Source: an uncultured Bifidobacteriaceae bacterium (GTDB lineage: Bacteria; Bacteroidota; Bacteroidia; Chitinophagales; UBA10324). From it: DNA of 64,000 nt. Made by a program: the position numbers and the translations under genes. This document shows, in pieces, positions 7,483 to 57,662 of this stretch. Position 1 is the stretch's first letter; each line of letters starts with the position of its first letter. The DNA is taken from assembly GCA_964640655.1 (NCBI GenBank), contig CAZXFT010000007.1, forward strand, positions 42,753 through 106,752, given 5' to 3'. The notes beneath the pieces are model-generated. The model saw only the letters and a program-made list of their open reading frames with translations. It ran no database searches and was not told where the DNA came from.

Positions 7483-7773
7483 TTAAGGATGAATACAGCG
7501 TAAACTGATTGCCTCTGCTCTTGAGGCAAATAATGCCTTAGTTCTGATCCATGTTTGTTTAAAAAACTCGGAGAAGCGATAGCGATTCAATGATTCTTCG
7601 TTTTCCCATATGCTGTAAGTCATCATCACACATTCGTCCGATACATCCTGCAACAAACTGACCGATTGGCAGCCCTCAAACGAACTAATAACAGGATAAA
7701 CTTCATGAAATAGTTTTTGAAAATCATCGACATATTCCTTCCTGAACGTCATTTTTACGATTCGTACAATCAT
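7483..7773 (-). CDS. antibiotic-biosynthesis-monooxygenase (ABM) domain protein
   Basis: 96 aa with a ferredoxin-like ABM pattern (MIVRIVKMTF..FEGCQSVSLLQD..YSIWENEESL). Confidence 0.6.
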   Translation of the reverse strand: MIVRIVKMTFRKEYVDDFQKLFHEVYPVISSFEGCQSVSLLQDVSDECVMMTYSIWENEESLNRYRFSEFFKQTWIRTKALFASRAEAISLRCIHP

Positions 7774-8549: not shown

Positions 8550-8598
8550 TCCCGCGATAATTATTTGTTATTTTTTCCTCATCAAAATAACTTAAAAA

Positions 8599-9606: not shown

Positions 9607-9618
9607 AGACATTAATCA

Positions 9619-13580: not shown

Positions 13581-13677
13581 AGTTTATATTTTTTGGAGAA
13601 CTTGTAAATAAGATAAGGCTGCAGAATAATTTTTTGTTTGCAGACAAGCCACTGAATGAAATTGACTGAAACCATAC

Positions 13678-16977: not shown

Positions 16978-16981
16978 CCGC

Positions 16982-18256
16982 TTATTTTTTACCGGTGCCT
17001 TTACATACTATACAAGAAATATAACCTGCCTGACGAAGCACCTCATCTACTGTATATGTGACATAATTCTTGGGACCTATGCCATTACTGATATCCTTTG
17101 TAACCACTTTTTGTCTTTTTATTTCCTGCTGATAAACTTTACCGGTGCCGTTACACTTAGAGCATTTCAGTTCAACAGGTTTATCGGGGATAGTGTTACT
17201 CACATTACTATTAGTATTATCCAGATTTGTGTTGGCATCAATTGGCCTGTTGGCATCCGTAGTTCTTGATGAGTCTGGCTTAAGTGTGTTAATATCGGCA
17301 CTTTCAATTACCTTAGGTTTAATAAAAATGGTGTCGGTTTTTGATTCGTGAACAGCCAACAAACCTGAAACTAATTTTCCATTTTTATAAATCACAGGAA
17401 TACTATCTCCTTCAGCAGTTATTAAAACACCTTCACCTTCATATTCTCCATTATTAAATTTTCCAATGTACCTGTCGCCATTTTTATAATAATAAACACC
17501 CGAGCCGTGGTAAGCGCCATTCAAATAGGAGCCGTCAAACTTATCGCCGTTGCTGTATCGGCTAATACCTATTCCCTGAATACCATCATTCAAAAAGTCC
17601 CCTTCATATTCACTGCCATCAGGAAAATGATAAATGCCTTTGCCTTGCTTCACGTTGTTAATGAAATTGCCTTTGTAGAATGAGCCATCGTTATATGTAT
17701 AGGTTCCCTCGCCATTGTAGAGGTCAGCTTTGAAGTTACCCTTATATGAAGAACCATTGTTAAATAAAAACTCACCATATCCCTGCTTTTTGTTTTTAAA
17801 AAAGCCTCCGGTGAATTTATTGCCGCTGGCAAATTCGTAAGTGCCTTGCCCCTCAAATTGGCCATTGATAAAATCACCGGTGTATTTATCGCCATTGACT
17901 AATTCCAAAGTGCCTTTACCTTCCATTCTGTTGGCTACAAAGTTTCCGGTGTAGATATTACCGCTGTTGAAATACATCTTACCCTCACCTACTTTAATAT
18001 TGTTTTCGAAGTTGCCTTCATATTTATTTCCGTTCAGGTAGGTCATCACACCCTTACCATTTGGAGTTCCGTTCTTAAAAGAACCGGTGTATTTATTACC
18101 ATTTACATAATGTAATGTACCTGTTCCATTTTTACAATCACCAACAAGGCAGGTATCACCATAACTATTAACTGTTTGAGCACAAGCCGAGGAGGGTAAA
18201 AACAATGATGCACATGAGTATATAGTAACAAGATATATCAAGCGGATGAAGTTCAT
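16982..18256 (-). CDS. secreted MORN-repeat protein with a C-terminal DnaJ-type 2x CxxCxGxG zinc-finger module
   Basis: Signal peptide (MNFIRLIYLVTIYSCASLFLPSSACAQ) and about 12 MORN units (YxGxfxnGxxxGxG). After a linker come KCSKCNGTGK and SCIVCKGTGKK. The stop is 4 nt from the start of the propeller kinase gene. Confidence 0.8.
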   Translation of the reverse strand: MNFIRLIYLVTIYSCASLFLPSSACAQTVNSYGDTCLVGDCKNGTGTLHYVNGNKYTGSFKNGTPNGKGVMTYLNGNKYEGNFENNIKVGEGKMYFNSGNIYTGNFVANRMEGKGTLELVNGDKYTGDFINGQFEGQGTYEFASGNKFTGGFFKNKKQGYGEFLFNNGSSYKGNFKADLYNGEGTYTYNDGSFYKGNFINNVKQGKGIYHFPDGSEYEGDFLNDGIQGIGISRYSNGDKFDGSYLNGAYHGSGVYYYKNGDRYIGKFNNGEYEGEGVLITAEGDSIPVIYKNGKLVSGLLAVHESKTDTIFIKPKVIESADINTLKPDSSRTTDANRPIDANTNLDNTNSNVSNTIPDKPVELKCSKCNGTGKVYQQEIKRQKVVTKDISNGIGPKNYVTYTVDEVLRQAGYISCIVCKGTGKK

Positions 18257-25733: not shown

Positions 25734-28700
25734 TTATTTACTAATCGTTATCTGCTCGCCGGCTACCCAGTTCTTGTATTCAGAAGAGTAGTACAGGAAA
25801 ACATTGCTCGCTGCCGCTTCAAAAACACCGGGCACTTCGGCTTTTAAATCCACCGGCACCAAAAGTTTTTCTTCGGGCTTCATTTGGCGTAGATAAATCA
25901 CCAAATTATTTTCCCATATTTCGAAATAAGCAATCTTGTTTTGTTCCTGCAATGTTTTCAGTGCAGCAGCTTGAATACTTAATCCTGCAGGAATACCGAT
26001 AATTGCTGTTGTTGAAGGTTTACCTTCGTTTCGCAGGTTTTCAATTTCTACATTCATACGTACCATATCCCCTACTCTGCATTGTTTGGTATTTAAAGAA
26101 GTTTGCAATTGCACATCGCAATCTTCTGATGAAGGAGGTAATCCAATGTTATAAGTAACATTTACGCTATAAGGCAAAGCCACTTTGCAACCCTTGTATT
26201 TAATCTTTAGGTTATGCGAACCTTCTTTCACAAACTTTTCCAAACCTTTTATTTCAATGGTACCGTTCTCACCGGCTTTGAAACTTGCTTCGCCAATAGC
26301 TTCATCGTTCAGGTAAACGGTAATGGTTCCCGATTCGGCTGTGCGTTTAGAGAACAAACTGAATTTGCTCAATGCTTTCAGTGCTAAAATAGTAGCCTGC
26401 GTGTTGCCCCAGTCGCCATAGCCGCTGCGCGCGTTTACTAAGTACGAGGCAGCTTTTTCTGTTTTCACATAATCAGGATTGTTGCTTTGCATCATAGCCA
26501 GTAAACTCAGTGAGGTAGTTTCAACATCCAGTCCCTGACCGGTGGAACAGGTAATACTCTGCTTGGCACCTTTCATAGCCCCATCAGCACTTTGCGATTT
26601 CACCAGTTTTTCGAGAACAGTGTTGGCGCGGGATAAATCTTTTTTGTTATACAATGTATTGGCAACCAATGCCAGCACATAAGGGTCGCTCGAAGCCAGA
26701 GCAGTTTGGTAGGCATAGTCCACTTCTTTTTGAATATCGCCATATCCGGCTTCACTTAGTGCATAAGTAATATACACATTGGTTACTTCTTCGCTGGCGC
26801 GGCCAAAATAATCGAGTGCCTTGCCATCTCTTAAATATCCGCCTTTACCATCGCGACGTGCCATCAGCCAATCGGCAGTGCGCTTAATCATACTTTCGTC
26901 AACACCGCTGTATAACTTCTTGTATTCGTTAAACTGCATCAGTCCGTATGCAGTAAGGGCCTCGTGACCCGGTGCAGAACCAAACCATTCGTAACCTTTT
27001 TGTTTGGTTTCAAATGTTACCAGCTTGTTGTATCCTTCGGTTAAAAGTTCTTTAGCCTGAGCATATACTTTCTCGTCGCCGGTTTCGCTGTTCTTCAGAT
27101 AATCCATAATCATGGCATTAGGATAAGAACTCATACTTGTTTGTTCAAAACATCCACCCGGCCGGCGAAGTAATCCGCTGATGCCTTGAAGTATGGTGCT
27201 TACTGTGGAAGGATATGCAGTTAAAGAAACTTTCATAGAACCGGGTAAGGCATCTTTGATTCGTAATGAAAAGGTGCGGTCCAGGTCGCGGCCACTAAAG
27301 CTTTGCTGCACCGGAAAGCCGCGCGATTCCACTTTAACGGGTACAGTGGTTTCATCGCTGAAATCGCTGCTCATAAATGATAGTAATAATGTATCGTTCA
27401 TTTGAACCTGCTGTGCCGTGAAGCGGCGATACACCACCTGCGCTGTTTGCGGTGCTATGCTCAATGTGGTATCGGCAACAGCAGATGCAAAAACCTGCTC
27501 ATTGAACTTCACACTCAGTTTACCGGATAATGTTTTTGATGAATTGTTCTTTACAATCACCGGTAAACTCAGCACATCACCCGAAGTTAAAGTGCCGGGA
27601 GTTTTAGAACTGATGGTAACAGGTAATTGGGTGAAGATGAGTTTTTCGCCTCTGCCTGCCAGTCCGCTGTTGGAAACACCTTCTGCAATTATTTTGAATG
27701 AAGTAATTAAATCGTTGGTGGGGAATTCAAAAACTGCTTTACCATCCAAATCAGTTTCAATGGCATGTTTAAAAAATAAAGTAGAGGCAAAATCAGTACG
27801 GGTGTAGTTTGATGATGCACTGTATTTCCTAACCGGAAACTCACGTGATCTGTAATAGGTCGTTACTTTAATCTGATTATTTTCTACGATGCTGTCGAAC
27901 TTAAACAAACCTTTAACACGATTATCAGCAACAACGATTTCTTCATCCTTTAAATTCTTACTTTCATCGTCCTTTACTTGCTCAACGTTCTTCACAGGGA
28001 CCTTATTCTGAGCTGTTTCTTTATGCTTAATCACATTTCTTGAATGTTGGGGTGCACCAAACATTACTGCATCCTCATTAACCATCATATTCATTTGAGG
28101 CACCAATTGAATGTTTTTATGCCTCACACCAACATTCTCCACTACCACTTCTTCAAGCATATAATTTTTAGAATAAAGCCACACGGTATTGTTTGAAGTG
28201 TAGGATGTTACCTGAACACTGCCCGGGTTATAATTACCTGCTGTAATAGTAAACACAGCAGTTTCATACAAGTCAATATTGGTGAATAACGCTTTACCAT
28301 TTTTATCTGTCTGATAAACCGACCCGCTGTTATTTAGTTTTAATTGTGCATCTGGTATGGGCTTGCCGGTATTACCATCAACAACCTGAATAGAGAATGT
28401 AGCCAACTCACCTTCTTTTTTAACTAATGGTATTTCTTTATTTAAAACCTGCTTCCAGGTAAAGCGTCTCCATCCGGAGGTCATCATAACTAAGTCTAAG
28501 GCTGCTGTGGACTTGGCCTCGCTCTTATCGAAATAAAAATTAGGTTCGTCAATCTTTTCTTTAAGGTCGTATTCCAAAAGCATAGCTGATAAAAGGTTGC
28601 TTGATTTATCATCAGCATAACTCAGCAGTTGATCGTTCACCACCTTGGCAGAAACAATGGCCGGAATGGGGTTTCCGTTTTCATCAAGTGTGCGAACGGT

Positions 28701-30080
28701 AGTCTTCACTTTGTCGCGGCTTTGATATTGCTCGCGCTCGGTTTGAATGCTGATTTGCATTTGTCGGTCGCGGTTTACAAAAACCAAACGCTCGGCACGT
28801 GGAGTCATCTGTTGATCGAAAACAGAAATCTGTGCCACACCGGCAGGAAAACCAGAAACAGGAATGCTTAACATATTGTCGCCTTCATTCAAAACTCTCG
28901 ATGTGCTGAAATAAATTTTACCGCGCACCTGAGCTATCACCATAGCTTTAAACATACCGGTAGAGCGTAAGTTAACCTGTATGTCTTTGCTTTCGCTTTT
29001 CACTTCCATATTAAAACCATGTTGCAGGGCAACAGGCAGGTTCCAGGTCTTGGAAATTTCTTTGGGCTTGGTGATGCTCGCGGTATATGTTTCACCACTT
29101 TGAGGTGTGAAGTAGCAAGAGCCCATTCCTTTATGGTAAGTTTCCAGTTTACATACTTCTTTGCCTTTTGAATCTTTGATAACACCTTCCACACTCAATG
29201 CTTTTCCGTTTTCATCCCATGTTCTGAAAGCCACACGCGCGGGTAAACCTGCTATCATATCGCCACCCTCAGGAAAAAATTCCACCGAGATATTTTCACT
29301 TGAAACAGGCACAGGTTTGTTGATGCTTTCTGTTAACCCGTCATTTTCAATTTTCACATTCATCTGCACATCGCGAGTTTTCAGTTTTGCCGGAAGGTTG
29401 TATCGTACATACATTACGCCGTCGTCGCCGGTGGTTGAGGTACCTTCTTTAAATTTTAAACCATCAGCTTTCAGTTCATATGTAAATGATTTGTTTCTTA
29501 AAGGCTTGTTTTCATTAGTGCTCACAGAAAACTTTGAGATTACTTCCTCTCCTTTTGTATAACTGTCTTTGTCGAAAGTGAGGTTCATCTTCACACGTGG
29601 AAGTATCACTTTCTGCAACAACACTTCTTTTTCAAATGCAATGCTATCGTTCTCGTTACGCATCCAGTTGGTGTATGCTTTCACTTTATAATAGCCGCCT
29701 GCCATGGTAGTGTTGGTTCCAAAATCACCACCACATACTCCGTTTCGGGCTATCAGATTCATCGTTTGCACTACATTGCCCGACGGTGCCAGTAACTCAA
29801 CATGTATTATATCACTCTTATCCGATTTCCGGAGCTGTGCGTTTTTCAGAAATACCGTAAACCAAATGTTTTCACCCGGATTATATATTGGTTGGTTCGT
29901 ACTTAAGTATAGACGCTCTTCCGCAATAGCCTGCGATCGCATATTGAATAGTTTCTCTAAAGAATCGGTTTGTTCGTCTTTTAACTGAACTACATTATCA
30001 TGTGCCTGAAGCATAGAGATAATGGCGATAGCAGCAAGAACCAAAGCCGCTAAAGGTTTAAGGATGGTGAAGTTTCGCAT
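25734..30080 (-). CDS. alpha-2-macroglobulin family protein with a thioester-type CFEQ motif
   Basis: Signal peptide and MG-type beta-sandwich repeats, plus a CarboxypepD_reg-like insert (IQVVDGNTGKPIPDAQLKL). GGCFEQTSMSS (CFEQ at 27141-27152) precedes an alpha/alpha-toroid-like region. The ATG at 30080 (MRNFTIL) is preferred over the TTG at 30110. Confidence 0.8.
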   Translation of the reverse strand: MRNFTILKPLAALVLAAIAIISMLQAHDNVVQLKDEQTDSLEKLFNMRSQAIAEERLYLSTNQPIYNPGENIWFTVFLKNAQLRKSDKSDIIHVELLAPSGNVVQTMNLIARNGVCGGDFGTNTTMAGGYYKVKAYTNWMRNENDSIAFEKEVLLQKVILPRVKMNLTFDKDSYTKGEEVISKFSVSTNENKPLRNKSFTYELKADGLKFKEGTSTTGDDGVMYVRYNLPAKLKTRDVQMNVKIENDGLTESINKPVPVSSENISVEFFPEGGDMIAGLPARVAFRTWDENGKALSVEGVIKDSKGKEVCKLETYHKGMGSCYFTPQSGETYTASITKPKEISKTWNLPVALQHGFNMEVKSESKDIQVNLRSTGMFKAMVIAQVRGKIYFSTSRVLNEGDNMLSIPVSGFPAGVAQISVFDQQMTPRAERLVFVNRDRQMQISIQTEREQYQSRDKVKTTVRTLDENGNPIPAIVSAKVVNDQLLSYADDKSSNLLSAMLLEYDLKEKIDEPNFYFDKSEAKSTAALDLVMMTSGWRRFTWKQVLNKEIPLVKKEGELATFSIQVVDGNTGKPIPDAQLKLNNSGSVYQTDKNGKALFTNIDLYETAVFTITAGNYNPGSVQVTSYTSNNTVWLYSKNYMLEEVVVENVGVRHKNIQLVPQMNMMVNEDAVMFGAPQHSRNVIKHKETAQNKVPVKNVEQVKDDESKNLKDEEIVVADNRVKGLFKFDSIVENNQIKVTTYYRSREFPVRKYSASSNYTRTDFASTLFFKHAIETDLDGKAVFEFPTNDLITSFKIIAEGVSNSGLAGRGEKLIFTQLPVTISSKTPGTLTSGDVLSLPVIVKNNSSKTLSGKLSVKFNEQVFASAVADTTLSIAPQTAQVVYRRFTAQQVQMNDTLLLSFMSSDFSDETTVPVKVESRGFPVQQSFSGRDLDRTFSLRIKDALPGSMKVSLTAYPSTVSTILQGISGLLRRPGGCFEQTSMSSYPNAMIMDYLKNSETGDEKVYAQAKELLTEGYNKLVTFETKQKGYEWFGSAPGHEALTAYGLMQFNEYKKLYSGVDESMIKRTADWLMARRDGKGGYLRDGKALDYFGRASEEVTNVYITYALSEAGYGDIQKEVDYAYQTALASSDPYVLALVANTLYNKKDLSRANTVLEKLVKSQSADGAMKGAKQSITCSTGQGLDVETTSLSLLAMMQSNNPDYVKTEKAASYLVNARSGYGDWGNTQATILALKALSKFSLFSKRTAESGTITVYLNDEAIGEASFKAGENGTIEIKGLEKFVKEGSHNLKIKYKGCKVALPYSVNVTYNIGLPPSSEDCDVQLQTSLNTKQCRVGDMVRMNVEIENLRNEGKPSTTAIIGIPAGLSIQAAALKTLQEQNKIAYFEIWENNLVIYLRQMKPEEKLLVPVDLKAEVPGVFEAAASNVFLYYSSEYKNWVAGEQITISK

Positions 30081-30167
30081 AATCTTGTTGATTTTGATAA
30101 GAAGATGCAAGCTTTCACGTCTTTACATAAATGAATCTTCATTTTTAATTAAGTCGCGGTGTGATAT

Positions 30168-34710: not shown

Positions 34711-37164
34711 ATGAAAAATAATTTATGGAGTAGCTTCATTTGCCTTGCTGTTGTTATTTGTTCGTACAGTTCATTTGCACAATCCTATTCAGGCTTTCGT
34801 ACAGGCAGCTATGCGGGTATCCATGGAGCATTGTTTAATCCCGCATTTATTGCTGACAACAGACTAAAGTATGATATCAATCTGGTTTCTATGAATGTAA
34901 GTGCAGGAAATAATTTCCTCACCATTGATAACAGTGCATTATTCAACCCTAAGAAGTTTAATGAAGAAGGATTTAAAGAGAAATATGTAACACAAAACCT
35001 GGATGGTAAAACCAAAAATGTATATCTGAACATTGACATTATAGGGCCTGCATTTTTTCTTGAACTGTCAGAAAAAGATGCCTTAGGGTTTTATATGCGT
35101 ACACGTGGAATGGTAAATGTTGACGGAATTGATCAGGGGACTGCCGAAATAGCATACCGTGATTTACGCGACGATGAATTATTAAAACCTTTCAGTGGCT
35201 CGCATGCTTTAATTAATCAAAATCTTTGGACAGAATATGCTTTCCCTTATGCACGTATTGTGCACAATGATGGAGAAAACGTAATTAAACTTGGCGGTAC
35301 CTTAAAACTATTGCAAGGCATTGCCAGCACATATGCCTCTGTAACAGATTACACCTATACTCACCTGAATCGTGATACCATGATTAACATGAGTGGTAAT
35401 GTAGGTTATGGTCGTTCGCAAAATACCTTCTGGCAGGAAGGTGGGGCTAAGTTTAAATTTGAACAAGCCGGCATTGGATTAGATCTGGGAATCATTTACG
35501 AGTATCGTCCAGATTTTGAAGAGCAGAAGTATGATCTAGATGGTGTAAAAGACATTATGCCTAAATACACTGATGTATATAAATTAAAACTTGGTTTTTC
35601 AATTACTGACATCGGAACCATACGTTATAAGAAATCTGACAAGTCTCGTGATTATATAGATAACACAGCTGTTATGGACTTAGACCTGTTCAAGAATCTG
35701 GCAAGCTTTGAAGATATGGACACCCGTATTGAAAATGTTCCCGGTAATGTCCCCGATGCTGCGAACAAGAAAAAGTTTAGTATGAATTTGCCTTTAGCAT
35801 TAAACTTTATGGCAGACTACAGAATAGGCAAAGGCTTTTATCTGAATTTAAATCCAATAGTTGCTCTGCGTGCGGGTAAAGGCGACGTTAATAAAACTCA
35901 TTACTTCACAAACTTCGCGCTTACTCCTCGTTGGGAGAATCGTTGGTTTGGTGTCTACATTCCTGTGGAGTACAACACTTATATGAAGTTCAATACGGGT
36001 TTATCACTACGGTTAGGGCCTGTGTTTGTAGGTTCCGGTAATATTTTATCGAATATTGGCTCCGGAGAAACAAACAAAATTGATGTTGCCGGTGGTGTGA
36101 AAGTGCCAATTCCATATCCTAAACCAAAAGATAGAGATAAGGATGGTGTGAGTGATAAATTAGATTTATGTATTAATCTGAAGGGAACTTGGGAAACCAA
36201 AGGCTGTCCAGACAGAGATGGCGATGGAATACTGGACGATGATGATAAATGTCCTGATGTACCTGGCATCAAAGCATTTAACGGCTGCCCTGATCGTGAT
36301 GGCGATGGTATTCAGGATAGTGAAGATGCATGCCCTGATGTAGCCGGTAAACTTGAAATGCAGGGTTGTCCGGATAGAGATAATGACGGAATTGCGGATA
36401 AGGATGATCGTTGTCCGGATATAGCAGGAATTAAAACATTTAACGGCTGCCCTGATACTGATAAGGATGGGATAGCAGATATTGATGATGATTGTCCAAA
36501 TATTGCAGGACCAAAAGAAAACAATGGTTGCCCATATGCTGATACCGATGGAGATGGGGTGCTGGATAAAGATGATCGTTGTCCAACTGTGAAGGGACCT
36601 ATTGCAAACTATGGTTGCCCATATGTTGACACAGATGAGGATGGTGTATTGGATAAAGACGATGCCTGCCCAACTATTAAAGGCCCTGTCGAGAATAAAG
36701 GTTGTCCATATTCCGATACAGACGGTGATGGCATAATAGATTTGGAAGATGAATGCCCCGCAACTCCTGGTCCTGCAAGTAATAAAGGTTGTCCGGTTAT
36801 TGAAGAAAAAGTGAAAGAAATTTTGAAAACGGTATTCGACAATCTGGAATTTGAAACAGGCAAATCAGTGATCCGTGAATCGTCTTACATAAGTTTAGAT
36901 GAACTGGCAGATTTGCTGATTAAAAAACCTGAGTACCGATTACTCATTGAAGGCCACACAGATAATGTTGGCTCTCGTGAGTCAAATATGACCTTGTCAC
37001 GAAATAGAGCTAATTCTGTTCAGGCTTATCTCATAAACAAAGGCGTAAAAGATTCTCAAATGAAGACCAACTATTACGGTCCTGATAAACCGGTAGACAA
37101 TAATGCTACACCAGAAGGACGTCAGCGTAACCGCCGTGTTGAGTTTAACATTTACTTCGAGTAA
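34711..37164 (+). CDS. OmpA family outer-membrane protein with N-terminal beta-barrel-like region and about 9 thrombospondin type-3 (calcium-binding) repeats
   Basis: Signal peptide and repeated DxDxDGxxDxxDxCP units between about 36120 and 36790. C-terminal OmpA domain (LLIEGHTDNVGSRESNMTLSRNRANSVQAYL..NRRVEF). Confidence 0.9.
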   Translation: MKNNLWSSFICLAVVICSYSSFAQSYSGFRTGSYAGIHGALFNPAFIADNRLKYDINLVSMNVSAGNNFLTIDNSALFNPKKFNEEGFKEKYVTQNLDGKTKNVYLNIDIIGPAFFLELSEKDALGFYMRTRGMVNVDGIDQGTAEIAYRDLRDDELLKPFSGSHALINQNLWTEYAFPYARIVHNDGENVIKLGGTLKLLQGIASTYASVTDYTYTHLNRDTMINMSGNVGYGRSQNTFWQEGGAKFKFEQAGIGLDLGIIYEYRPDFEEQKYDLDGVKDIMPKYTDVYKLKLGFSITDIGTIRYKKSDKSRDYIDNTAVMDLDLFKNLASFEDMDTRIENVPGNVPDAANKKKFSMNLPLALNFMADYRIGKGFYLNLNPIVALRAGKGDVNKTHYFTNFALTPRWENRWFGVYIPVEYNTYMKFNTGLSLRLGPVFVGSGNILSNIGSGETNKIDVAGGVKVPIPYPKPKDRDKDGVSDKLDLCINLKGTWETKGCPDRDGDGILDDDDKCPDVPGIKAFNGCPDRDGDGIQDSEDACPDVAGKLEMQGCPDRDNDGIADKDDRCPDIAGIKTFNGCPDTDKDGIADIDDDCPNIAGPKENNGCPYADTDGDGVLDKDDRCPTVKGPIANYGCPYVDTDEDGVLDKDDACPTIKGPVENKGCPYSDTDGDGIIDLEDECPATPGPASNKGCPVIEEKVKEILKTVFDNLEFETGKSVIRESSYISLDELADLLIKKPEYRLLIEGHTDNVGSRESNMTLSRNRANSVQAYLINKGVKDSQMKTNYYGPDKPVDNNATPEGRQRNRRVEFNIYFE

Positions 37165-48258: not shown

Positions 48259-48741
48259 TTATTCCGCAGTCACGGAAATTTCGAGAATCTCAAACCGGAT
48301 AACTCCGGCAGGAACACTAATTTCGGCAATTTCACCCACTATCTTTCCTAAAAGTCCTTTTCCTATAGGAGAACTCACCGATATTTTACCCAATTTAATG
48401 TCTGCTTCATTTTCTGATACCAACATAAACTTAGCGTCTTGCTTGGTATTTAAGTTCTTTACTTTCACCGACGAAAGAATCATAATCTTGGAAACATCCA
48501 TTTTGCTTTTGTCAATGATTCTTGCTTTAGAAAGTGTTGATTCCAATTGCGCAATCTTCATTTCCAGCATACCTTGTGCATCTTTTGCAGCATCGTACTC
48601 CGCATTTTCCGAAAGATCACCCTTATCGCGAGCTTCAGCTATTGCTTTGGCCACATCGGCTCTTCCTTTGGTTTTTAATTCTGACAGTTCCAGTTTCAAT
48701 TTCTCTAAGCCTTCAGGAGTGAAGTATTGTATATCAGTCAT
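48259..48741 (-). CDS. greA: transcription elongation factor GreA
   Basis: 160 aa. Coiled-coil N-terminus with DLSENAEYDAAK and a C-terminal FKBP-like domain. Confidence 0.92.
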   Translation of the reverse strand: MTDIQYFTPEGLEKLKLELSELKTKGRADVAKAIAEARDKGDLSENAEYDAAKDAQGMLEMKIAQLESTLSKARIIDKSKMDVSKIMILSSVKVKNLNTKQDAKFMLVSENEADIKLGKISVSSPIGKGLLGKIVGEIAEISVPAGVIRFEILEISVTAE

Positions 48742-48772
48742 TGGACAAAAAAGTAAATTTTATGTTGTGATT

Positions 48773-48809
48773 AAAAAAACAAAAAACGCTCTCTTGCGAA
48801 AGCGTTCCT
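48773..48809 (-). terminator. Rho-independent terminator ending the TBDR-like/1275-aa/PorV-like operon
   Basis: AACGCTCTC / GAAAGCGTT stem (one mismatch) with loop TTGC. On the minus strand it is followed by TTTTTTGTTTTTTT. Confidence 0.75.
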
Positions 48810-48833
48810 AGTGTATGATGTAAAGTTAATAAA

Positions 48834-49898
48834 TCAGAGATTAATGCGCACGCCAACGGTATGCGTTCCACCCCATGGACTACTTGTGCGATAGGAGTAG
48901 TCGAAGGCTACATTTGGTCCACCTTTTTTTGTAGGTAAGTCTATTGTAATACCACCACTTAAACCGGTGAATGCAGTACTTCTTTCATTTGAATCAAGCA
49001 ATCCCTGTTGGTAGTTATAACCCCCTCTAATCATAAATTGCTCTTTAAATGCATACTCTAAACCCGCACCAATCTGATCGCGGTAAAAAGAGTTGGACGT
49101 AAAGTTACCTGCAAGTGTAAGACGCTGATTACGATTTGCATCATCAGCACCACCAAATTTAAAGTCGTATGACAAACCAATATTCAACATGGATGGCAAC
49201 TCAAATTGCTGAGAACGTTTTTCAATTGTTAAAGGATAAGTTCCTTCCGGTGCTGTACCTTTGAAAGACAAAGCATCGCCACGAAAACGCATAGGTGTAC
49301 CGATATTGCGTAATGCAATTCCAAACTTAATTTTCTCAGGATCTTTCTTGGTACCTGTTTGATACTGAATACCAGCATCAAGAGCCACACCCGTAGCCTG
49401 AATATCAGAAACTGATTCAGAAATTCCACGAACGACAAAACCACCATAAATACTCTTCGAGAAAATCTTAGAATAAGCTAAAGCAATATTTAAAAACTGA
49501 GGACGGAATGTACCGATACCTCCTTCTGGGTTATCAGTTGTTGTTACCTGTATTTCGCCAAAAGTCATAGCCATTACACTAACACCCAGCACACCACCTG
49601 ACTTACCAACTGTTTGCGCCAATCCAAGTGCATTGATGTTAATGCCTGTTCCTGTCAAATAATTAGTGTGGGCAAATCCAATCTCTGTCTTTTTGGTGAA
49701 TGCTAATCCGGCTACGTTTTGATTGATTGCCTCAAAGCCGCGTACCGTTGATGTATTCAAACCATTCCAGCCACTGCTGCGACCCCAAGGGTTAATAAGT
49801 AGCTCATAAGCACCGGCCTGACCGGCACGATCTTTATTACCGGCTATGACAACACTCAGGTTTGTTACTATTAATACTATTACTAAAAGTTTTTTCAT
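48834..49898 (-). CDS. PorV/PorQ-family-like outer-membrane beta-barrel protein
   Basis: Signal peptide from the ATG at 49898 (MKKLLVIVLIV). N-terminal pattern AGQAGAYELLINPWGRSSGWNGLNTSTVRGFEAINQNVAGLAF resembles the G.AGA..L.I...R....G........A...NPAGLA signature of PorV/PorQ-type barrels. The C-terminus ends in a beta-strand pattern. Confidence 0.55.
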   Translation of the reverse strand: MKKLLVIVLIVTNLSVVIAGNKDRAGQAGAYELLINPWGRSSGWNGLNTSTVRGFEAINQNVAGLAFTKKTEIGFAHTNYLTGTGININALGLAQTVGKSGGVLGVSVMAMTFGEIQVTTTDNPEGGIGTFRPQFLNIALAYSKIFSKSIYGGFVVRGISESVSDIQATGVALDAGIQYQTGTKKDPEKIKFGIALRNIGTPMRFRGDALSFKGTAPEGTYPLTIEKRSQQFELPSMLNIGLSYDFKFGGADDANRNQRLTLAGNFTSNSFYRDQIGAGLEYAFKEQFMIRGGYNYQQGLLDSNERSTAFTGLSGGITIDLPTKKGGPNVAFDYSYRTSSPWGGTHTVGVRINL

Positions 49899-49923
49899 TG
49901 TAACGGGTTTTCGATTGTATGTT

Positions 49924-52900
49924 TTAGAATGAGTCAAGATCAATTGGACGTGTTACACCAAACCATTTTAATGTTTTTTCACCTATGCCTTCAGCATCAA
50001 TGTGGATAAGGTACATACCGCTGGCAATAGGAACACCGGCAGTATTCTTTAAATCCCAATCAAGAGATGTAATAGAGTCATCATCACGATTGTAGCGTCG
50101 AATTAATGTGCCATCTAATGAATAGATTGTGATTACACACTTTTTAGGAAGGTTAGCAATCTTAACGCGGTTATCTACCTGATTTCGCTCATAGCCTGAA
50201 TACGCATAATATGGATTGGGTATCACCTTTATTGTATCCAATGCACTTTTTGCAGTAGCTAAATCATTTTTAATAGCAGCAATATTAGCTGTATTAAATG
50301 TGTAGCGAGGTTTTGTTTCATTTATCACATCGCCTGCCTGGAATCTTTCGTAAGGTCTTGTAATACGAATCTTTAAAGTGGTCTCAGTTGGAATTAAACC
50401 ATCTTCAACAGACAATAACTGTTCGTCATTAAGTAGTAATGGTTGTGCAACCCAGGCAACTGTTTTATAAACATTAAGACCGGCAGAAATGGGAACGGAA
50501 GCTGTGTTAGGTGCTAATAAAAGCTGACTCTTAATATATGCACATTCATCATACTGTGTTTTCATTACATATACCCAATGGCGACCTCCTAAAGTAGCTT
50601 CTCCATTTGGAGTAAATAATGTTGATGTTGGATTCCAAATCATATCACGACCATTCTGACCAACCAGCCAAGAATCTTCACCAAACATAATATTCAAGCG
50701 CATACCAGTTTCAGGGTCAATAGCGTAGCCGGGGAACCAGCTCATTCCTAAATCGTTAGGGTCGGATGATTGTACTCCATTTTGATCAACAGAACGACCA
50801 CGACGTACAGCCATCTTAGGGACACCGCCTTCTGATAATCCTATTTCAGGACAAGTTTCAATAACTACACAACGTGACCATTTTGACTTGTCTGATGTAA
50901 ACACAAGATCAATACTTGGTAAATCGCTCAATGAATTTTGTGAACGAGCTGCTGCATTATTTAATATAGGTCCATAGTAAATATTTTGTGAGCATAAGCG
51001 ATAAGGAGCAATAGTCCTGTCCGCTATGTTCTCAAACTGTTGCGTTGGATCCTCGAATTGAAGAGTTCCACCTGGAGGAGTTGAACCGTAATCCGTAGTT
51101 TGATTAAATTGTGGTGTTCCATTCTCCTGATAGGTTCCTGAAAGAATCCAATTAAGGAAAGGATTACCATCAACGTCAGGTATGCCCCCCAACCAAGATT
51201 TACTATTGTCTTTTGCGATTAACTCCCATCCTACAATAAAATTGTTCTGACTATTCAGAGCCGGTGCGGTAACCTGACTAATATATACAGATAAACCCCA
51301 GTCCGGAATTAACTGTTCGTTACCAAGCTTAATATCTGTTTCGGACAGAACAGTTTCACCGTCTTTCATTTGCAATACCCATGTTGAGGCATCAGACATA
51401 GTGTTACCTGTTCCAACTGTTGAACCTTTAATCATCAATTCAAAGTCTGCGTTAGGAACAGATTTTGGGTCATAAACTTTTACCTCAATAGGTCCGCTGG
51501 CTTTTTTATATTTAGGTGTTGGTGAAAAACCGTTTTGTAAAATCTCATTTACGCTCTCCTGAGTTAATTCAACAAACAACCCCCCATTACCTTTTCCTTC
51601 CTGACGTATTATTTCAGGTCCATCACCATAAGTTGAATTCAGCGTCATTCCTGTGAATTCAGGTTCTGTGACGTGAGGTATTCCTTTAAGTATGGTTACA
51701 GATCGGCTCGACAAGTATGGAATTTTTTGATTGGTTGTAATTGTTTGTGCTACGCTATCTCCGTTTTCATCAAATAAATAACCGGTAATCTGTATATCTT
51801 CAAATCCGTTATAAGCATATGGAACCACTGCAAAGTAATAAGTCTGATGATTAATCAATCGTTTGTCGGTAGTAGCAAAAGCATTGCTGGTAATTTCAAA
51901 TGAGTGTCGAATACCTGAGTCTTCGCCATCAACTTTAAGTTCAGGAACATCATCTCCAATAGTAGCATCATAAACATAGTTAATCAGTTTGCTTACACCA
52001 TTCTTCAGATCGCACTGAAATATTAATTGTGCCTTTGAACCATCACCTAACTCTTGAAGAGATACTGATGAGGACTTTAATTGATAAATCTGATAACCTT
52101 CAAACTTATACAAAGAATCTGCAATTCCAAGTTTTTTCAAAACTGGATCAGCTTGTGAATAGGCTTCAGTGTTTTTGTAACCTTCGATAGCAAGTATCAG
52201 TTTGCGATCTAACTCAATAATTTTTACCTGAGGTTGAGCAGGACCATCTAAAATCTTAAAACAAGATTCAAATAAAGCTTGTGCTTTGTTGTCTGCTTTA
52301 AGTAATAAATCATATGAAGGGCAGGGTGCATATGTTCCTACAGGTGGACGAACCCAAACAACACCCACTACGATATCGTTTGAAGCTCCAGGTAATAAAG
52401 TGAAAGGACCTGAACTCTGAACGGTACGACGGTCAGCAGCGGTATTTTGTTGTGAACATTCTGACCAACCACTGTTCGTACTTGGTTTATCCGGGAACAC
52501 ATAATGTGTTGGAGTAGATCCACCATAGGCGTTTCCACCCTCTGTGAATGGTGAACCATCTTTCCATTTACCGGACAGATAACCATAGAAGTCAGATGTT
52601 TTTTCAGGATTACCCGTTACGGTGAAGTCGTTATTATAGTATAGGAAATTTGACATTCCAAGTTCGTTTCCATTTTCATCGAGAGGACCCTGGAAATAAT
52701 CGATACCAACTAATGGTGGCTGATTGCTATAAAAACCACCAGAACCACAGGGTTCATCTAAGGGGTCAGCATTATAAACTATTCCTAAACCCTGAACTGT
52801 ATCACAACCGATATAATCATCTGTATAGCAACCCAAATCAGGGTCAACCCATTTCCCCATATAACAGTTAGAAATAGCAGTTAAAGATTTGTTTAATAAA

Positions 52901-53751
52901 CGATATTTATAGAATGTCATATCGTTTACTTCATCAGATGTTTTAAAGGCAAATGCCAACGCTTGTATTTCCATGCCAATGGCTTCACCTCCTGTCTCTG
53001 AGTGAATATTACCATTATCATTATATACCCACCAAATCATTTGGTCGGCATAAACATTAGACTGACACTGACCAATTATTGGGTAATCACCTTGAGTTGG
53101 GTCATAATTACCATCTTCATCCCGGTCGAAAAAAGGCGCCATATTTCGGCTTCCTACCAATGTGTTATAAGGATTGTTCCGAGCGGGCCAATTTAAAATG
53201 TTTGAAGGAATCACATCAGCAGAAAGTGGATTGCCTCCGTTGCCATTCCACAAATTAATAGCCTCATCTATTTCTGCACCTAACACTTGCCAATGACGGT
53301 CAAAGTCACTACATACATCTGCTGTAGTTGTGCCTCCAAAACCATCTAAAGGACCTGGAAAGAAATCATTACCTGTTTGACGATAAGTTTGACAAGCAAC
53401 TTTCAACTGATTGTTCTGGTCGATACCACCAATCCAAATTGCACCAGCAAACATAGAGTTAGCCGGTGTTTGTCCGGTTTCTACTTTAGGTACTTCGTAT
53501 TTGGCGTTATTTACCAGATCCCACCACATATCGCCGCCATTTTGAATTTTAGCGCGAACGTTATTAATGTTCAGATCAATAGAAGATGTGGCCGGTGAAC
53601 AATCTCCGTTAGCAATTCTATTACCTATGTCTTTGCGATATGGTAAACCAGTTAAGTCTTTTGCGACAGCATTTATAGAAAATGCTCCGACTAGAAGAAT
53701 TAATGAAGCGGAATTAAGCCAATTTGTTTTCATAACAGAAAAGTTTAGCAT
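49924..53751 (-). CDS. large secreted protein of unknown function with a T9SS-type C-terminal beta-sandwich domain
   Basis: Signal peptide (MKTNWLNSASLILLVGAFSINAVA). No catalytic motif recognised across about 1150 aa. The last 100 aa (VIPNPY..ITIYSLDGTLIRRY..WDLKNTAGVPIASGMYLIHI) resemble a T9SS/FlgD-Ig-like sorting domain. Confidence 0.7.
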   Translation of the reverse strand: MLNFSVMKTNWLNSASLILLVGAFSINAVAKDLTGLPYRKDIGNRIANGDCSPATSSIDLNINNVRAKIQNGGDMWWDLVNNAKYEVPKVETGQTPANSMFAGAIWIGGIDQNNQLKVACQTYRQTGNDFFPGPLDGFGGTTTADVCSDFDRHWQVLGAEIDEAINLWNGNGGNPLSADVIPSNILNWPARNNPYNTLVGSRNMAPFFDRDEDGNYDPTQGDYPIIGQCQSNVYADQMIWWVYNDNGNIHSETGGEAIGMEIQALAFAFKTSDEVNDMTFYKYRLLNKSLTAISNCYMGKWVDPDLGCYTDDYIGCDTVQGLGIVYNADPLDEPCGSGGFYSNQPPLVGIDYFQGPLDENGNELGMSNFLYYNNDFTVTGNPEKTSDFYGYLSGKWKDGSPFTEGGNAYGGSTPTHYVFPDKPSTNSGWSECSQQNTAADRRTVQSSGPFTLLPGASNDIVVGVVWVRPPVGTYAPCPSYDLLLKADNKAQALFESCFKILDGPAQPQVKIIELDRKLILAIEGYKNTEAYSQADPVLKKLGIADSLYKFEGYQIYQLKSSSVSLQELGDGSKAQLIFQCDLKNGVSKLINYVYDATIGDDVPELKVDGEDSGIRHSFEITSNAFATTDKRLINHQTYYFAVVPYAYNGFEDIQITGYLFDENGDSVAQTITTNQKIPYLSSRSVTILKGIPHVTEPEFTGMTLNSTYGDGPEIIRQEGKGNGGLFVELTQESVNEILQNGFSPTPKYKKASGPIEVKVYDPKSVPNADFELMIKGSTVGTGNTMSDASTWVLQMKDGETVLSETDIKLGNEQLIPDWGLSVYISQVTAPALNSQNNFIVGWELIAKDNSKSWLGGIPDVDGNPFLNWILSGTYQENGTPQFNQTTDYGSTPPGGTLQFEDPTQQFENIADRTIAPYRLCSQNIYYGPILNNAAARSQNSLSDLPSIDLVFTSDKSKWSRCVVIETCPEIGLSEGGVPKMAVRRGRSVDQNGVQSSDPNDLGMSWFPGYAIDPETGMRLNIMFGEDSWLVGQNGRDMIWNPTSTLFTPNGEATLGGRHWVYVMKTQYDECAYIKSQLLLAPNTASVPISAGLNVYKTVAWVAQPLLLNDEQLLSVEDGLIPTETTLKIRITRPYERFQAGDVINETKPRYTFNTANIAAIKNDLATAKSALDTIKVIPNPYYAYSGYERNQVDNRVKIANLPKKCVITIYSLDGTLIRRYNRDDDSITSLDWDLKNTAGVPIASGMYLIHIDAEGIGEKTLKWFGVTRPIDLDSF

Positions 53752-53754
53752 TTA

Positions 53755-56700
53755 TTAGAAGTTTAAGACTACACCAGCCCAGATTCTGCGAGGTTGAGTG
53801 AAGTTATTAGGGTTTAACAATTTAACTTGATACAAATCCTGGTAAGATTGTACATCTAATTTTCCTTGAAGTGATTGCTGACCGAATGCAGATGCTATAT
53901 ATCCATCATCAGTTGGAGAACCGGTGAAGCTATAAACACTTACAACGTTCCTGATGTTTAAAGCATTTTGGATTAACACAAAAGCATTAATGTAAGCTTT
54001 CTTCTTTTCGTCTTTTGTTGAAAGAACAATATCGCGATCCAAGCGCAAGTCAATTTTAAATGTGTAAGGTAAACGCGAACCGTTAAGGTTTCCTTTGAGC
54101 GATGATTGTGCAGCTACACCGAATAATGCATCTGGAGTAGGATTTTGTTGACGAGTATATGGAGTTCCGGATCCCACGCGGAAGATGGTATTCAATCCGG
54201 TGTTCTTTAATATCTGTTTGCCATTTTTAGTAACTGGTCCATTGTATTCTTTCCCTTCCGAGAATCGATAATCTACTGTAGCGTTTATTGTATGGCGCTG
54301 ATCGTAGCTGAAAGGTATGATGGCACGTAAGTTTGGTTGACCGGAATTTATTAGGTTAACTGCTGATGTGTTATTGGAACCTGTACCTTCGGCAAACTGT
54401 AAAGTATAGTTGAAGTCCATACGTATATTTTTGGTACGACGCATTTCATAAGTAACTTGTAATGATTTTACAGTTCCAAAATCTATATTGCCATAAGTCT
54501 TATAGTCTATTGGTAAAGCATAAACTATGTTACGTGCCTGTACCATGTTCTTTAACTCTTTATAAGTTAATGAAATAGTCAATGCTGTAGATTTACTGAG
54601 TGCCTGTTGGAAACCTACCTGATAGTCAATAGTTTTTTCAGGTAACAGGTTAGGATTTGCAAAACGCGCGTTAACAGCAATTTGCTGGAAGTAGTCAAAC
54701 GTAAACGGAGATATACGGTTATTTCCGGGACGTTGAACCAATACATCATAATGCGCAAAGAATAATGCTTCGTCAGAAATAGGGAATGAAAAAGCTATTC
54801 GGGGAAGGAAATTAACTTGTGGATCGTAATCCTGAAAACCATCTTCTGAAATGGGTGACTTTCTGGTGTATCCGGCTGCTAAATACGGTTCAATACGACC
54901 GGTGGCAGAATTTTGAGCTATCAATTTGGGATCCGCAATCTCTGCACCATTGGCATCATACCATTTGTCTTTGAAACGATAACCTAACACGGCAGTTGGA
55001 TTTTCAGCATTGTTCACATATACCACATAGTCTTTACCGATGTTTTCAGGGTGTACTATAGGATTACCATTAATGGTTTCAACATCACCCACAGTACGTA
55101 TAGGGAACAGGGAGTACTCATCTTTTAATACCTTTTGGTTGGCATCGTAGCGGTCAATACGCACACCTATATTAAACACCAAGTCCTTAAAGTTAAAACG
55201 ATCTTGTATGTATGCTGCTGTATAAATTGGACGGAAAGAACCAATTGGTCTTGTAAATATCTCACGACCATTGACTGTTTCTTTTTTGGTGAAATAATCG
55301 AAGAATGAAGGTTGAGATTTCATTCTGTTGCCACGCCAGTCGTAACCCCAATATTGAATATAATTATTACCGTTATTATTTAACTCATCCGGACTGAACA
55401 TATCGATACTGAATGTTGATGGGTCTAAACTATTGATGTCAATAAATTCGGACTGCGAAGCGCCAATTATATTACGAAGGTTATAATCAAAGAATGATTG
55501 ATTGCCTCCGTCTTTGTAGTTGTAGTTTACAGTGTCCTGAAATATTCCATCATTGCTGTAAACCATCAAAGGATTATCTATATCGAGAACTAAATGATTG
55601 TTGGTAAGTTGACGCGCAAGACCCCATATGCCAATACCCCCGGTTGGGAATACTCTGTATCCACGGTCGTCGCGTTGCTCGTACTCAAAACCAAATTCTA
55701 AAGCATGACGATTCTTTTCTCCTCCGATTGATGAGGGACGAACAATATCCACAGAACCCTGAAACGAAATGCGGTACTGTTGGTTGGTCAGATTACGAAT
55801 CTCGCCTTGTGTGAAACCTGTGGCACGATAGAGTGAGTATATGTCGCTTGGAGAAAATCCATTAAACACCCCTCCATTATTTAATATGGTATTCAAACTG
55901 CGAAACAGCGAAGAATTACCATTTAAGCCATAAACACCATCAATAGGTGTACTACCTGAAAGTGTGTAATAATCAATTACATAATTTGCAAGATCCGGAT
56001 TAAGCTCAGTTGGTTGATATGTAACTAATGTATCTGCAAAGCCGGTAAAGTAGTGTGCTGTGATTGGACGAAAGCCCTGAGGTGTATTGATACTATCAGT
56101 AGTATATGAATAAATTGGTGCTTTGTATGTATTGAACTTGCCATAATAGCTATAATCAAAAGGTTGAGTCAGTATATCATTGTCAATCGTTTGTTTGAAA
56201 TGTGTATAGTCTAATTGAAGGTTATAAAAGGCGTTCTGGAACACTGAAGCAGATTTACCATCTGCTGTTTTGGCATTTTTGAATCTCTGAACAAAGCGAA
56301 CAAATCCACGATATGTTCTTTCATCCAAACGTGGATTATTATAATAATTAAACATTGAATTCAACCCGTCATAGTCAAACTGTGAACGCTGAATATCGGC
56401 GTTTCCACCAATAGTGATATTCATATAGTCTGTTAAACGGAAGTCAATCTTAGAGGCAAATCGGAAATTATTATCAGCAGTGTTTAATCGTGATTTAACA
56501 TTTTGTAAATCAGATTTTCTGATAAAAGATGCACTGTTTGAGTAACCAACACCTACTGGATTAGGTACCAAAGGATTTTTACGGATAGCATTTAATTTAT
56601 CTTCCTTAACTCGCCAAATGCCCAAAGCTGATGGATCGCTGTCTGTATTACCTAAATATTCTCCTGAAAAGAAATAACCAATCTTGGCTACAGAAGTATC

Positions 56701-57501
56701 TGTGTTTTTATATTTCGTGTATAGAGGTCCGCTGATATTGAAGTTTACAAGTTTATAACCAAAGCCATCAAGGAATTGAGATGTGTTCAGTTCAAGACCA
56801 CCTGAAACTATTTTTGAAGGACCTCGAGTTGTGATGGTAATGATACCTCCTGTGGCATCACCATACTTAGCCGGAATACCCCCTGTTATCAATGTCAATT
56901 GCTCAATAGCTGTTGACGGCAAGTTGATATTCCCACGCATCGGAATACCATCAACGTAATATCTGTTATTGTAATCACGGTTACCACCAACGTTAAGTGC
57001 CGCACCGTTATCTCTTTGGAACACACCTGCCGACATACCCACTAAGTCGTTCGGGTTGTTACGCGATGTTGCTAACTGTTGAATCTCAGTTTTGGTCTTG
57101 GTATCACCCGTTTGAGTCTTATCAGGATCAACTAGTTTCCTGTCAGCTGTAATAATAACCGGTTTAATTTCATTCACCACTTTTGTCAACTTGATTGTAA
57201 GCGTTGACATTTTATCTGAGCTGATCAAAACGTTATTAACTTCTGTAGGGTTGTAACCCACATAAGACACCTTAACTATATAAGTACCAGGTATGATTGG
57301 TTTAATGGAATACGATCCATCGTCTTCTGTGTAACCACCGGCCTTTTGAACGCCTCCCTGCATAATTACTACAGGTGCGAATCCGATTCCTTTGTTAGTT
57401 TCTGCGTCAATTACCTTTCCTTGCAATTCACCGGTTTGCGCTTTAGCACCAACTGCTGCAATAAGAAGAGCGATAAATACGAGCGAGTAAATTTTTCTCA
57501 T
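53755..57501 (-). CDS. TonB-dependent-receptor-like outer-membrane protein with N-terminal CarboxypepD_reg-like domain and plug
   Basis: Signal peptide from the ATG at 57501 (MRKIYSLVFIALLIAAVGAKAQ). Carboxypeptidase-regulatory fold (GKVIDAETNKGIGFAPVVI..GTYIVKVSYVGYNP) and plug-like region (VDGIPMRG..ITGGIPAKYGDATGGIITITTRG). A long barrel ends in ..GVVLNF. Confidence 0.8.
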   Translation of the reverse strand: MRKIYSLVFIALLIAAVGAKAQTGELQGKVIDAETNKGIGFAPVVIMQGGVQKAGGYTEDDGSYSIKPIIPGTYIVKVSYVGYNPTEVNNVLISSDKMSTLTIKLTKVVNEIKPVIITADRKLVDPDKTQTGDTKTKTEIQQLATSRNNPNDLVGMSAGVFQRDNGAALNVGGNRDYNNRYYVDGIPMRGNINLPSTAIEQLTLITGGIPAKYGDATGGIITITTRGPSKIVSGGLELNTSQFLDGFGYKLVNFNISGPLYTKYKNTDTSVAKIGYFFSGEYLGNTDSDPSALGIWRVKEDKLNAIRKNPLVPNPVGVGYSNSASFIRKSDLQNVKSRLNTADNNFRFASKIDFRLTDYMNITIGGNADIQRSQFDYDGLNSMFNYYNNPRLDERTYRGFVRFVQRFKNAKTADGKSASVFQNAFYNLQLDYTHFKQTIDNDILTQPFDYSYYGKFNTYKAPIYSYTTDSINTPQGFRPITAHYFTGFADTLVTYQPTELNPDLANYVIDYYTLSGSTPIDGVYGLNGNSSLFRSLNTILNNGGVFNGFSPSDIYSLYRATGFTQGEIRNLTNQQYRISFQGSVDIVRPSSIGGEKNRHALEFGFEYEQRDDRGYRVFPTGGIGIWGLARQLTNNHLVLDIDNPLMVYSNDGIFQDTVNYNYKDGGNQSFFDYNLRNIIGASQSEFIDINSLDPSTFSIDMFSPDELNNNGNNYIQYWGYDWRGNRMKSQPSFFDYFTKKETVNGREIFTRPIGSFRPIYTAAYIQDRFNFKDLVFNIGVRIDRYDANQKVLKDEYSLFPIRTVGDVETINGNPIVHPENIGKDYVVYVNNAENPTAVLGYRFKDKWYDANGAEIADPKLIAQNSATGRIEPYLAAGYTRKSPISEDGFQDYDPQVNFLPRIAFSFPISDEALFFAHYDVLVQRPGNNRISPFTFDYFQQIAVNARFANPNLLPEKTIDYQVGFQQALSKSTALTISLTYKELKNMVQARNIVYALPIDYKTYGNIDFGTVKSLQVTYEMRRTKNIRMDFNYTLQFAEGTGSNNTSAVNLINSGQPNLRAIIPFSYDQRHTINATVDYRFSEGKEYNGPVTKNGKQILKNTGLNTIFRVGSGTPYTRQQNPTPDALFGVAAQSSLKGNLNGSRLPYTFKIDLRLDRDIVLSTKDEKKKAYINAFVLIQNALNIRNVVSVYSFTGSPTDDGYIASAFGQQSLQGKLDVQSYQDLYQVKLLNPNNFTQPRRIWAGVVLNF

Positions 57502-57543
57502 ACTCTTTTTGGGTTTTAGTGGGTTCTTTTTTTTGAAGGTGGA

Positions 57544-57551
57544 CAAATATA
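57544..57551 (-). promoter_or_regulatory. candidate promoter -7 box (TATATTTG) for the outer-membrane operon
   Basis: Exact TAnnTTTG on the minus strand, 43 nt upstream of the ATG at 57501, with TTTTG 17 nt further upstream. The listed TTG start (57546) falls inside this box. Confidence 0.45.
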
Positions 57552-57662
57552 ACCGTTAAACTGAATTGCAAAACGAAAGTATATTTTATTCTAAAAGCTT
57601 GTATATGTTGCTGTTTGCTTTTACATTTCCATGACAGTATTTTGACACTTACATGACAATTA

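Follow-up and report, generated by a model that had tools for sequence, protein, structure and literature searches.

A conserved three-gene operon of Bacteroidota that may combine a TonB-dependent transporter with a surface protein held by a PorV/PorQ-family barrel

We analysed a 64-kb stretch of contig CAZXFT010000007.1 from an uncultured member of the Chitinophagales (assembly GCA_964640655.1), hereafter the window, and within it an outer-membrane operon whose genes we label g1, g2 and g3 in transcription order. All three lie on the minus strand, packed tightly between 57501 and 48834. The first, g1 (53755–57501), encodes a TonB-dependent transporter of 1248 aa counted from its ATG; g2 (49924–53751) encodes a secreted surface protein of 1275 aa whose family has no name; and g3 (48834–49898) encodes a 354-aa outer-membrane barrel of the PorV/PorQ family, for which we propose the role of carrier and anchor of g2. 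Coordinates of the open reading frames (ORFs) confirm the layout described in an initial annotation of this DNA, with 3 nt between g1 and g2 and 25 nt between g2 and g3. No second copy of g1, g2 or g3 was found elsewhere in the window.

The g3 protein matches the PorV/PorQ family model NF033709 with 137.9 bits against a cutoff of 90, over model positions 6–326 of 326, which upholds its earlier description as a PorV/PorQ-type barrel and places it outside unrelated porin families. It falls under the cutoffs of all the equivalog models that it touches, scoring 76.8 bits with PorQ (NF033711, cutoff 220), 56.9 with PorV (NF033710, cutoff 250), 36.6 with PorV2 (NF052325, cutoff 325) and 27 with BamG (NF053685, cutoff 250), the last being the score on which a BamG-like identity was rejected. 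This pattern of passing the family model and failing the equivalogs repeats in 33/33 aligned relatives, close ones of which carry the NCBI name ‘PorV/PorQ family protein’; four of the 33 also touch the PorP model weakly. Searched against the PDB, the g3 family profile matches PorV of F. johnsoniae (6h3i_F) with an E-value of 3e-18, the match covering the first 210 residues. Judged by its profile scores, g3 is a separate subfamily that stands closer to PorQ than to PorV. From its operon linkage and the literature on the family, we infer that g3 would act as a carrier that docks on SprA/Sov and whose extracellular loops bind the C-terminal domain (CTD) of a T9SS (type IX secretion system) cargo.

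The proposed cargo, g2, consists of a Sec signal peptide (aa 1–30), a conserved N-terminal region (aa ~49–780), a variable middle, a second conserved region (aa ~990–1160) and a CTD. In an aligned set of 37 homologues, every member has a type I signal peptide followed by a ‘KENIG’-like start, and a lipobox is absent from g2 and from all 37; g2 therefore requires another means of surface retention. The lack of a SusD partner reported earlier holds as well, with no SusD match or lipobox in g2 and no SusD gene nearby. Pfam returned zero matches for the window g2, and among the relatives it recognized only tail domains in 4/37 (FlgD_ig in three, Por_Secre_tail PF18962 in one). As single sequences g1, g2 and g3 gave nothing useful against the PDB; the family profiles of g1 and g3 did match, while g2 found no match with its profile included. 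An AlphaFold2 (AF2) model of g2 aa 31–1175 reached a predicted local distance difference test (pLDDT) score of 83.5 and is nearly all beta. Foldseek matched it to PDB entries weakly and in part (template-modelling score, TM, of 0.24 at most), the targets being non-catalytic beta-supersandwich domains of GH94, GH116, GH161 and GH65 enzymes; fold matches to FN3 arrays were likewise weak, and a viral library returned FN3/tail-protein noise. We rejected the assignment of g2 to any known class of enzyme, as it has neither a Pfam enzyme family nor a catalytic fold, in agreement with the initial annotation, which had seen a signal peptide and no enzymatic motif.

Conservation along g2 is bimodal. The frequency of the major residue in the alignment is mostly 0.67–0.75 over the N-terminal ~450 residues, with one 50-residue block at 0.53, and mostly 0.45–0.63 in the middle, with one block at 0.69. 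The middle varies, and relatives acquire Big_9/cadherin-like inserts; a relative with a Big_9 insert keeps both ends, a modularity seen by comparison with P0055. The family is large: at 50% identity it comprises 7,524 clusters when E≤1e-3 is required and 2,753 at E≤1e-30. Among the source names listed, nearly all read ‘hypothetical protein’, and one relative bears the NCBI label ‘T9SS type A sorting domain-containing protein’.

The CTD itself (49954–50271, minus strand; aa ~1161–1266) is of the T9SS type and resembles those of PorZ and PorU. Positions 660–743 of the 757 in the NCBIfam PorZ model (NF052228) match g2 aa 1161–1254, with 26.8 bits against a full-length cutoff of 260; by this match g2 shares its CTD type with PorZ and lies outside the PorZ protein family. 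Matches among the 37 relatives number 30 for the PorZ model, 16 for the type A tail model TIGR04183 (E<0.01) and 10 for the PorU sortase model, the last presumably within the PorU CTD. A hidden Markov model (HMM) of this CTD subtype matches g2-type ORFs exclusively in 83 related loci. Few parts of the protein are conserved as well as the CTD, whose major-residue frequencies are 0.69–0.80; the surfaces of ordinary type A CTDs are conserved poorly (PMC10994853). Its last strand carries a Lys that is invariant in the alignment and that, by position alone, we take to be the conserved CTD Lys touching PorV in the translocon structure (PMC10994853). The strand is followed by a nine-residue tail (49927–49953, minus strand; aa 1267–1275, TRPIDLDSF; family consensus RPxDLDxF) that is nearly invariant in the alignments and ends in an aromatic residue. 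Ordinary T9SS CTDs stop at the last strand, and the tail of g2 may serve to contact g3 or g1. The PorZ/PorU-like CTD points to permanent anchoring on g3 rather than shuttling. The ‘dedicated shuttle’ of the initial annotation is right as to the PorV/PorQ family of g3, but the C-terminal end of g2 speaks for an anchor.

The transporter, g1, has a signal peptide (aa 1–22), a CarboxypepD_reg domain (aa 26–106), a plug (aa 135–220) and a barrel (~aa 233–1248) with long extracellular inserts; a candidate TonB-box region lies at ~aa 115–130. Pfam identifies CarboxypepD_reg and Plug, the latter with 23.9 bits, exactly its cutoff, and both domains, already noted from the translation, are borne out by a set of 36 orthologues from related loci (CarboxypepD_reg in 36/36, Plug in 35/36, TonB_dep_Rec_b-barrel in 14/36). 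The g1 family profile matches the plugs of Cir, PirA and PfeA in the PDB (E 6e-12). An AF2 model of aa 110–1248 (pLDDT 76.6, predicted TM score 0.72) aligns end to end in Foldseek with the 22-strand barrels of PirA, PfeA, FhuA and FoxA (E ~1e-25, TM 0.57–0.69), and XusA of the XusAB complex is also among the matches. By HMM and fold together, g1 is a true TonB-dependent transporter. The long strands in the model number roughly 22–24 by DSSP, and the ~450 extra residues form inserts between strands, at model residues about 389–458, 509–649, 678–785 and 1070–1129. As modelled, the barrel is a standard transporter barrel that owes its extra length to loops, with no added strands and no wider barrel, so that what was at first called an oversized barrel is a long protein with big inserts but a normal barrel. 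SusC/RagA families are absent from the NCBIfam matches of 36/36 g1 relatives, including TIGR04056, which we take to be the SusC/RagA signature model; the matches are to generic or siderophore-type receptors. On these profile matches, g1 is not SusC-type.

A scan of one genome per species returned at least 591 loci with g2 relatives, the best 80 of which were examined. All 80 come from metagenome-assembled genomes (MAGs) labelled as Chitinophagales, Saprospiraceae, Flavobacteriales (Cryomorphaceae, Crocinitomicaceae), Bacteroidales and Lentimicrobiaceae, including lake, marine, groundwater and rumen lineages. Where enough flank was present on both sides, 55 of 60 loci preserve the order and shared strand of g1, g2 and g3 (a script counted 51, to which we added four that it had left out solely for overlapping alignments), and the near-zero g1–g2 spacing is kept across orders in these 55. 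In loci that end early, the expected neighbour is present wherever sequence exists. Co-occurrence of the trio is thus conserved in several Bacteroidota orders, which sustains the linkage implied by the earlier phrase of a shuttle hard-wired to one cargo; the ‘one cargo’ of that phrase is too strict, since there are solitary g2 paralogs. These occur in locus L001 (17327–21316) and in L017, L030, L051, L071 and L074 (g2 match at ~6001–9900 in each). They retain the same CTD without g1 or g3, which suggests that several alternative g2 ‘heads’ could share one carrier and one transporter; one of them adjoins a DDE transposase. As L017 comes from the same MAG as the locus L008, genomes with solitary copies can also hold a full trio.

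The neighbourhood of the trio is conserved as well. On the same strand, greA comes after g3 in 52 related loci (48259–48741 in the window; for example 11256–11729 in L005 and 11621–12013 in L031); a HIT-family gene comes after the trio in 47 and ruvC, on the opposite strand, in 29. A 2-hydroxyacid dehydrogenase gene precedes the trio in 16. The greA neighbourhood spans several orders, and with such conserved housekeeping neighbours the module therefore looks old and vertically inherited, rather than a mobile niche island. Its conserved place among core genes suggests a general need over a niche glycan.

At the 5' end of the operon is a candidate Bacteroidota promoter (57544–57572, minus strand), with a –33 TTTG (57572–57569), a 17-nt spacer and a –7 element TATATTTG (57551–57544). 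The match TTTG-N17-TATATTTG ends 42 nt 5' of the g1 ATG. The TAnnTTTG box reported earlier is therefore present, with TTTG upstream, but it is not statistically remarkable: the two-box pattern occurs once in the window, at the operon, and shuffled sequences contain 3.0 on average. We regard it as a well-placed consensus that is statistically not significant. An intrinsic terminator (48772–48809, minus strand) closes the operon with a 12-bp stem, a 4-nt loop and a T-run (hairpin 48809–48782). Its predicted RNA fold has a free energy of –15.5 kcal/mol (z = –4.95) and none of 200 shuffles was equally stable, in keeping with its earlier description as strong. For g1, a TTG extension of the ORF begins at 57546 and overlaps the promoter match; the start is more likely the ATG at 57501, from which a normal signal peptide results. 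For g3 we likewise prefer the ATG at 49898 to a TTG at 49943, which lies inside the end of g2.

Both flanks are housekeeping genes, greA and sufBCDSE downstream and the genes for a 2-hydroxyacid dehydrogenase, ksgA, pepA and pdxA upstream. No SusD, carbohydrate-active enzyme (CAZyme), regulator or sigma/anti-sigma pair is found near the operon among the flanking genes in the window, and the unit is self-contained for this reason, as first proposed. Rfam gave a single match in the operon, to sucC RNA at 53467–53534 (minus strand) within g2; at 21.1 bits it stays under the gathering threshold of 50 (E-value 0.82), and we take it as chance. Elsewhere in the window there are a bacterial alpha-2-macroglobulin-like protein of 1458 aa with MG2, A2M and TED domains (25734–30110, minus strand); an uncharacterized envelope protein of 817 aa with DUF5723, thrombospondin type 3 repeats and a C-terminal OmpA domain (34711–37164, plus strand); and a three-gene cluster on the minus strand (12006–18256) encoding a histidine kinase/response-regulator hybrid (12006–13580), a 1099-aa Reg_prop/Y_Y_Y sensor kinase (13678–16977) and a MORN-repeat protein (16982–18256).

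A model for the trio can be drawn from the T9SS itself. PorU and PorZ, T9SS substrates whose CTDs stay uncleaved, have the barrels PorV and PorQ as their anchors (PMC10947112, PMC12365241). A cognate carrier recognizes its cargo at the translocon and then carries or anchors it (PMC10994853). By analogy, g2 would cross the outer membrane via the general T9SS translocon of the cell, encoded elsewhere, and at the translocon g3, not PorV, would take the g2 CTD as its cognate carrier. The CTD would stay uncleaved, leaving g2 non-covalently anchored on g3 as PorZ is on PorQ and PorU on PorV. The conserved N-terminal region of g2 would then capture a ligand and hand it to g1 for TonB-powered import. 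We consider it probable that g2 has in g3 both its cognate carrier and its permanent anchor, because the g2 CTD is PorZ/PorU-like and unusually conserved, and because g3 is PorQ-like and encoded 25 nt downstream. Cooperation between g1 and g2 is the weaker link of the proposal. The ligand-capture partners of other Bacteroidota transporters are lipoproteins of the SusD, XusB, BtuG and HmuY type, and a transporter gene with an adjacent surface-partner gene is the standard layout for uptake in this phylum. Ligand capture is the simplest role for g2, because it has no lipid anchor and g1 is a complete transporter in the same operon; gene linkage would then imply a g1–g2 contact and a three-part complex. 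The whole chain, a TonB-dependent uptake machine with a surface partner delivered and held by T9SS logic without a lipid anchor, is a plausible reading of the locus that we hold tentatively.

Several observations weigh against this proposal. The T9SS-like sorting domain attributed to g2 in the initial annotation does match the PorZ and PorU models, but it is not a clean type A domain, scoring 18.4 bits with TIGR04183 (E 0.0016) under a cutoff of 23. Its similarity to solved structures is not significant, with the C-terminal region of PorZ (5m11) as the best PDB match of the single sequence at E 0.14 and the PorU structure at E 1.2 for the CTD profile; because of this, the label PorZ-like rests on the NCBIfam models. 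In the AF2 model of g1 the plug is of low confidence (pLDDT about 45–69), and the TonB box is a candidate by its position: the family consensus there is l.ev.V..YKVPLID, and the window g1 diverges from it, reading VNEIKPVIITADRKLVD. In 5/60 loci g2 stands alone, and an adjacent g1 is therefore not strictly needed. The fold of g2 yields no ligand hint, and a substrate is suggested neither by a regulator in the flanks nor by a riboswitch, none having come up when the operon and its leader were scanned with Rfam. The proposed binding of g1 to g2 and of g2 to g3 rests on gene linkage and analogy.

The rival explanation that survives best, although we think it unlikely, is that g2 and g3 constitute an anchored surface protein with its own job, as an adhesin, a surface-layer component or an unrecognized enzyme, and that g1 is merely co-transcribed, without contact. 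A protein made largely of FN3/Ig-like and sandwich domains, as adhesins and phage fibre proteins are, with a middle that is variable and open to inserts, would suit such a role, and so would the solitary paralogs that do without g1. However, the near-zero g1–g2 spacing that persists across orders would be hard to keep without functional coupling, and solitary copies come from genomes that are able to hold the full trio, as the MAG with L017 and L008 illustrates.

It is rather improbable that g2 is a conventional T9SS cargo with a cleaved CTD, with g3 as an extra PorV-like shuttle that passes g2 to the PorU sortase for release or attachment to lipopolysaccharide. Matches to the type A tail model in 16/37 relatives and the alignment of the first 210 residues of g3 with PorV are consistent with cleavage and shuttling. 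However, the CTD and the nine-residue tail rank among the best-conserved parts of g2, which one would not expect of a signal destined for removal; the models that fit best are those of PorZ and PorU, whose CTDs are uncleaved; and g3 scores higher with PorQ than with PorV.

Two further explanations would give g1 a role other than uptake, and both seem to us very doubtful. In one, g1 would work outwards, exporting g2 or helping to assemble it, with g3 receiving it at the surface, as a self-contained pathway that does not depend on SprA/Sov. The precedent is Oar of Myxococcus xanthus, a long CarboxypepD_reg TonB-dependent transporter, likened to g1 by description, that is tied to the handling of a secreted protein and is required for the secretion of PopC (PMC6434023). 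That system belongs to another phylum and has no T9SS and no carrier barrel. In favour of export, the trio forms a closed unit and no further transport gene lies close to it, but a T9SS-type CTD on g2 and a g3 from the T9SS carrier family mean that the established route is enough, the barrel of a plugged transporter is narrow for a cargo of 1275 aa, and solitary g2 paralogs exist. In the other, the trio would be a self-contained TonB-energized surface machine, in which TonB force acting through the g1 plug extracts, moves or remodels the g3–g2 pair, or exports g2; if true, T9SS carrier logic would be coupled to TonB instead of the GldLM/PorLM motor.

The least likely explanation is a divergent polysaccharide-utilization locus (PUL) with g2 standing in for SusD as well as for the surface glycan-binding proteins: the weak similarity of the g2 fold to domains of glycoside phosphorylases and hydrolases and the CarboxypepD_reg domain of g1, also found N-terminally in SusC proteins, lean that way, but we rejected it, in line with the initial annotation, since 0/36 g1 relatives match SusC/RagA, SusD, CAZymes, sensors and sigma/anti-sigma pairs are all missing from the surroundings, the place beside greA is conserved across orders in a manner unlike mobile niche-specific PULs, and the g2 fold matches are as weak as noted above.

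The proposed uptake machine can be compared with several known systems. It is like PorZ–PorQ and PorU–PorV of Porphyromonas gingivalis in that a T9SS-exported protein would keep its CTD and be held by a barrel of the PorV/PorQ family (PMC10947112, PMC12365241); the CTD of g2 fits the PorZ and PorU models best, and g3 comes from the same barrel family. It is unlike them in that g3 is under the PorQ and PorV cutoffs, g2 beyond its CTD is dissimilar to PorZ, with no beta-propellers detected, the trio includes a TonB-dependent transporter, which is absent from the attachment complex, and binding of g2 to g3 is as yet predicted from analogy. With SusCD, RagAB, XusAB, BtuB–BtuG and HmuR–HmuY the trio shares a plugged barrel with CarboxypepD_reg and an adjacent gene for a large surface partner. 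In contrast to those systems, g2 is no lipoprotein and not SusD-like, it bears a T9SS CTD, and a third gene would supply the anchor; g1, moreover, matches no SusC/RagA model.

Dedicated barrels beside their cargo are known from SprB–SprF and PG1035–PorP, where the cargo has a type B CTD and the barrel receives it from the translocon and then serves as its anchor (PMC9143113, PMC10994853). The trio differs in that g3 is PorV/PorQ-type and the CTD of g2 is type A/PorZ-like, not type B. In the Bacteroidota β-barrel assembly machinery (BAM) complex, BamG, a FadL/PorV-like 14-strand barrel, is a platform for the surface-exposed BamH (PMC12578637), as g3 would be for g2; BamH is a lipoprotein and works in the setting of BamA, and g3 falls far under the BamG cutoff.

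Every part of the trio comes from a known superfamily, and what is new is the combination of a transporter–partner system with a T9SS carrier–cargo pair. Our literature searches for the trio, for PorQ-like barrels or PorV paralogs and for transporter–T9SS complexes found no description of the trio or of PorQ-like paralogs. To our knowledge, all well-studied TonB-dependent uptake systems of Bacteroidota use surface lipoprotein partners, and the PorV/PorQ-family anchors in the literature we examined are only the T9SS's own PorU–PorV and PorZ–PorQ. If the proposal is correct, transporters could gain a surface component by a third route, with a T9SS cargo seated on a PorQ-like barrel of its own, and PorV/PorQ-family carriers would have diversified into cargo-specific anchors. 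The trio is widespread, and its g2 family has no Pfam model; it is therefore probably a major part of the outer membrane of environmental Bacteroidota that annotation has missed, and it provides a defined three-gene handle on T9SS carrier–cargo specificity.

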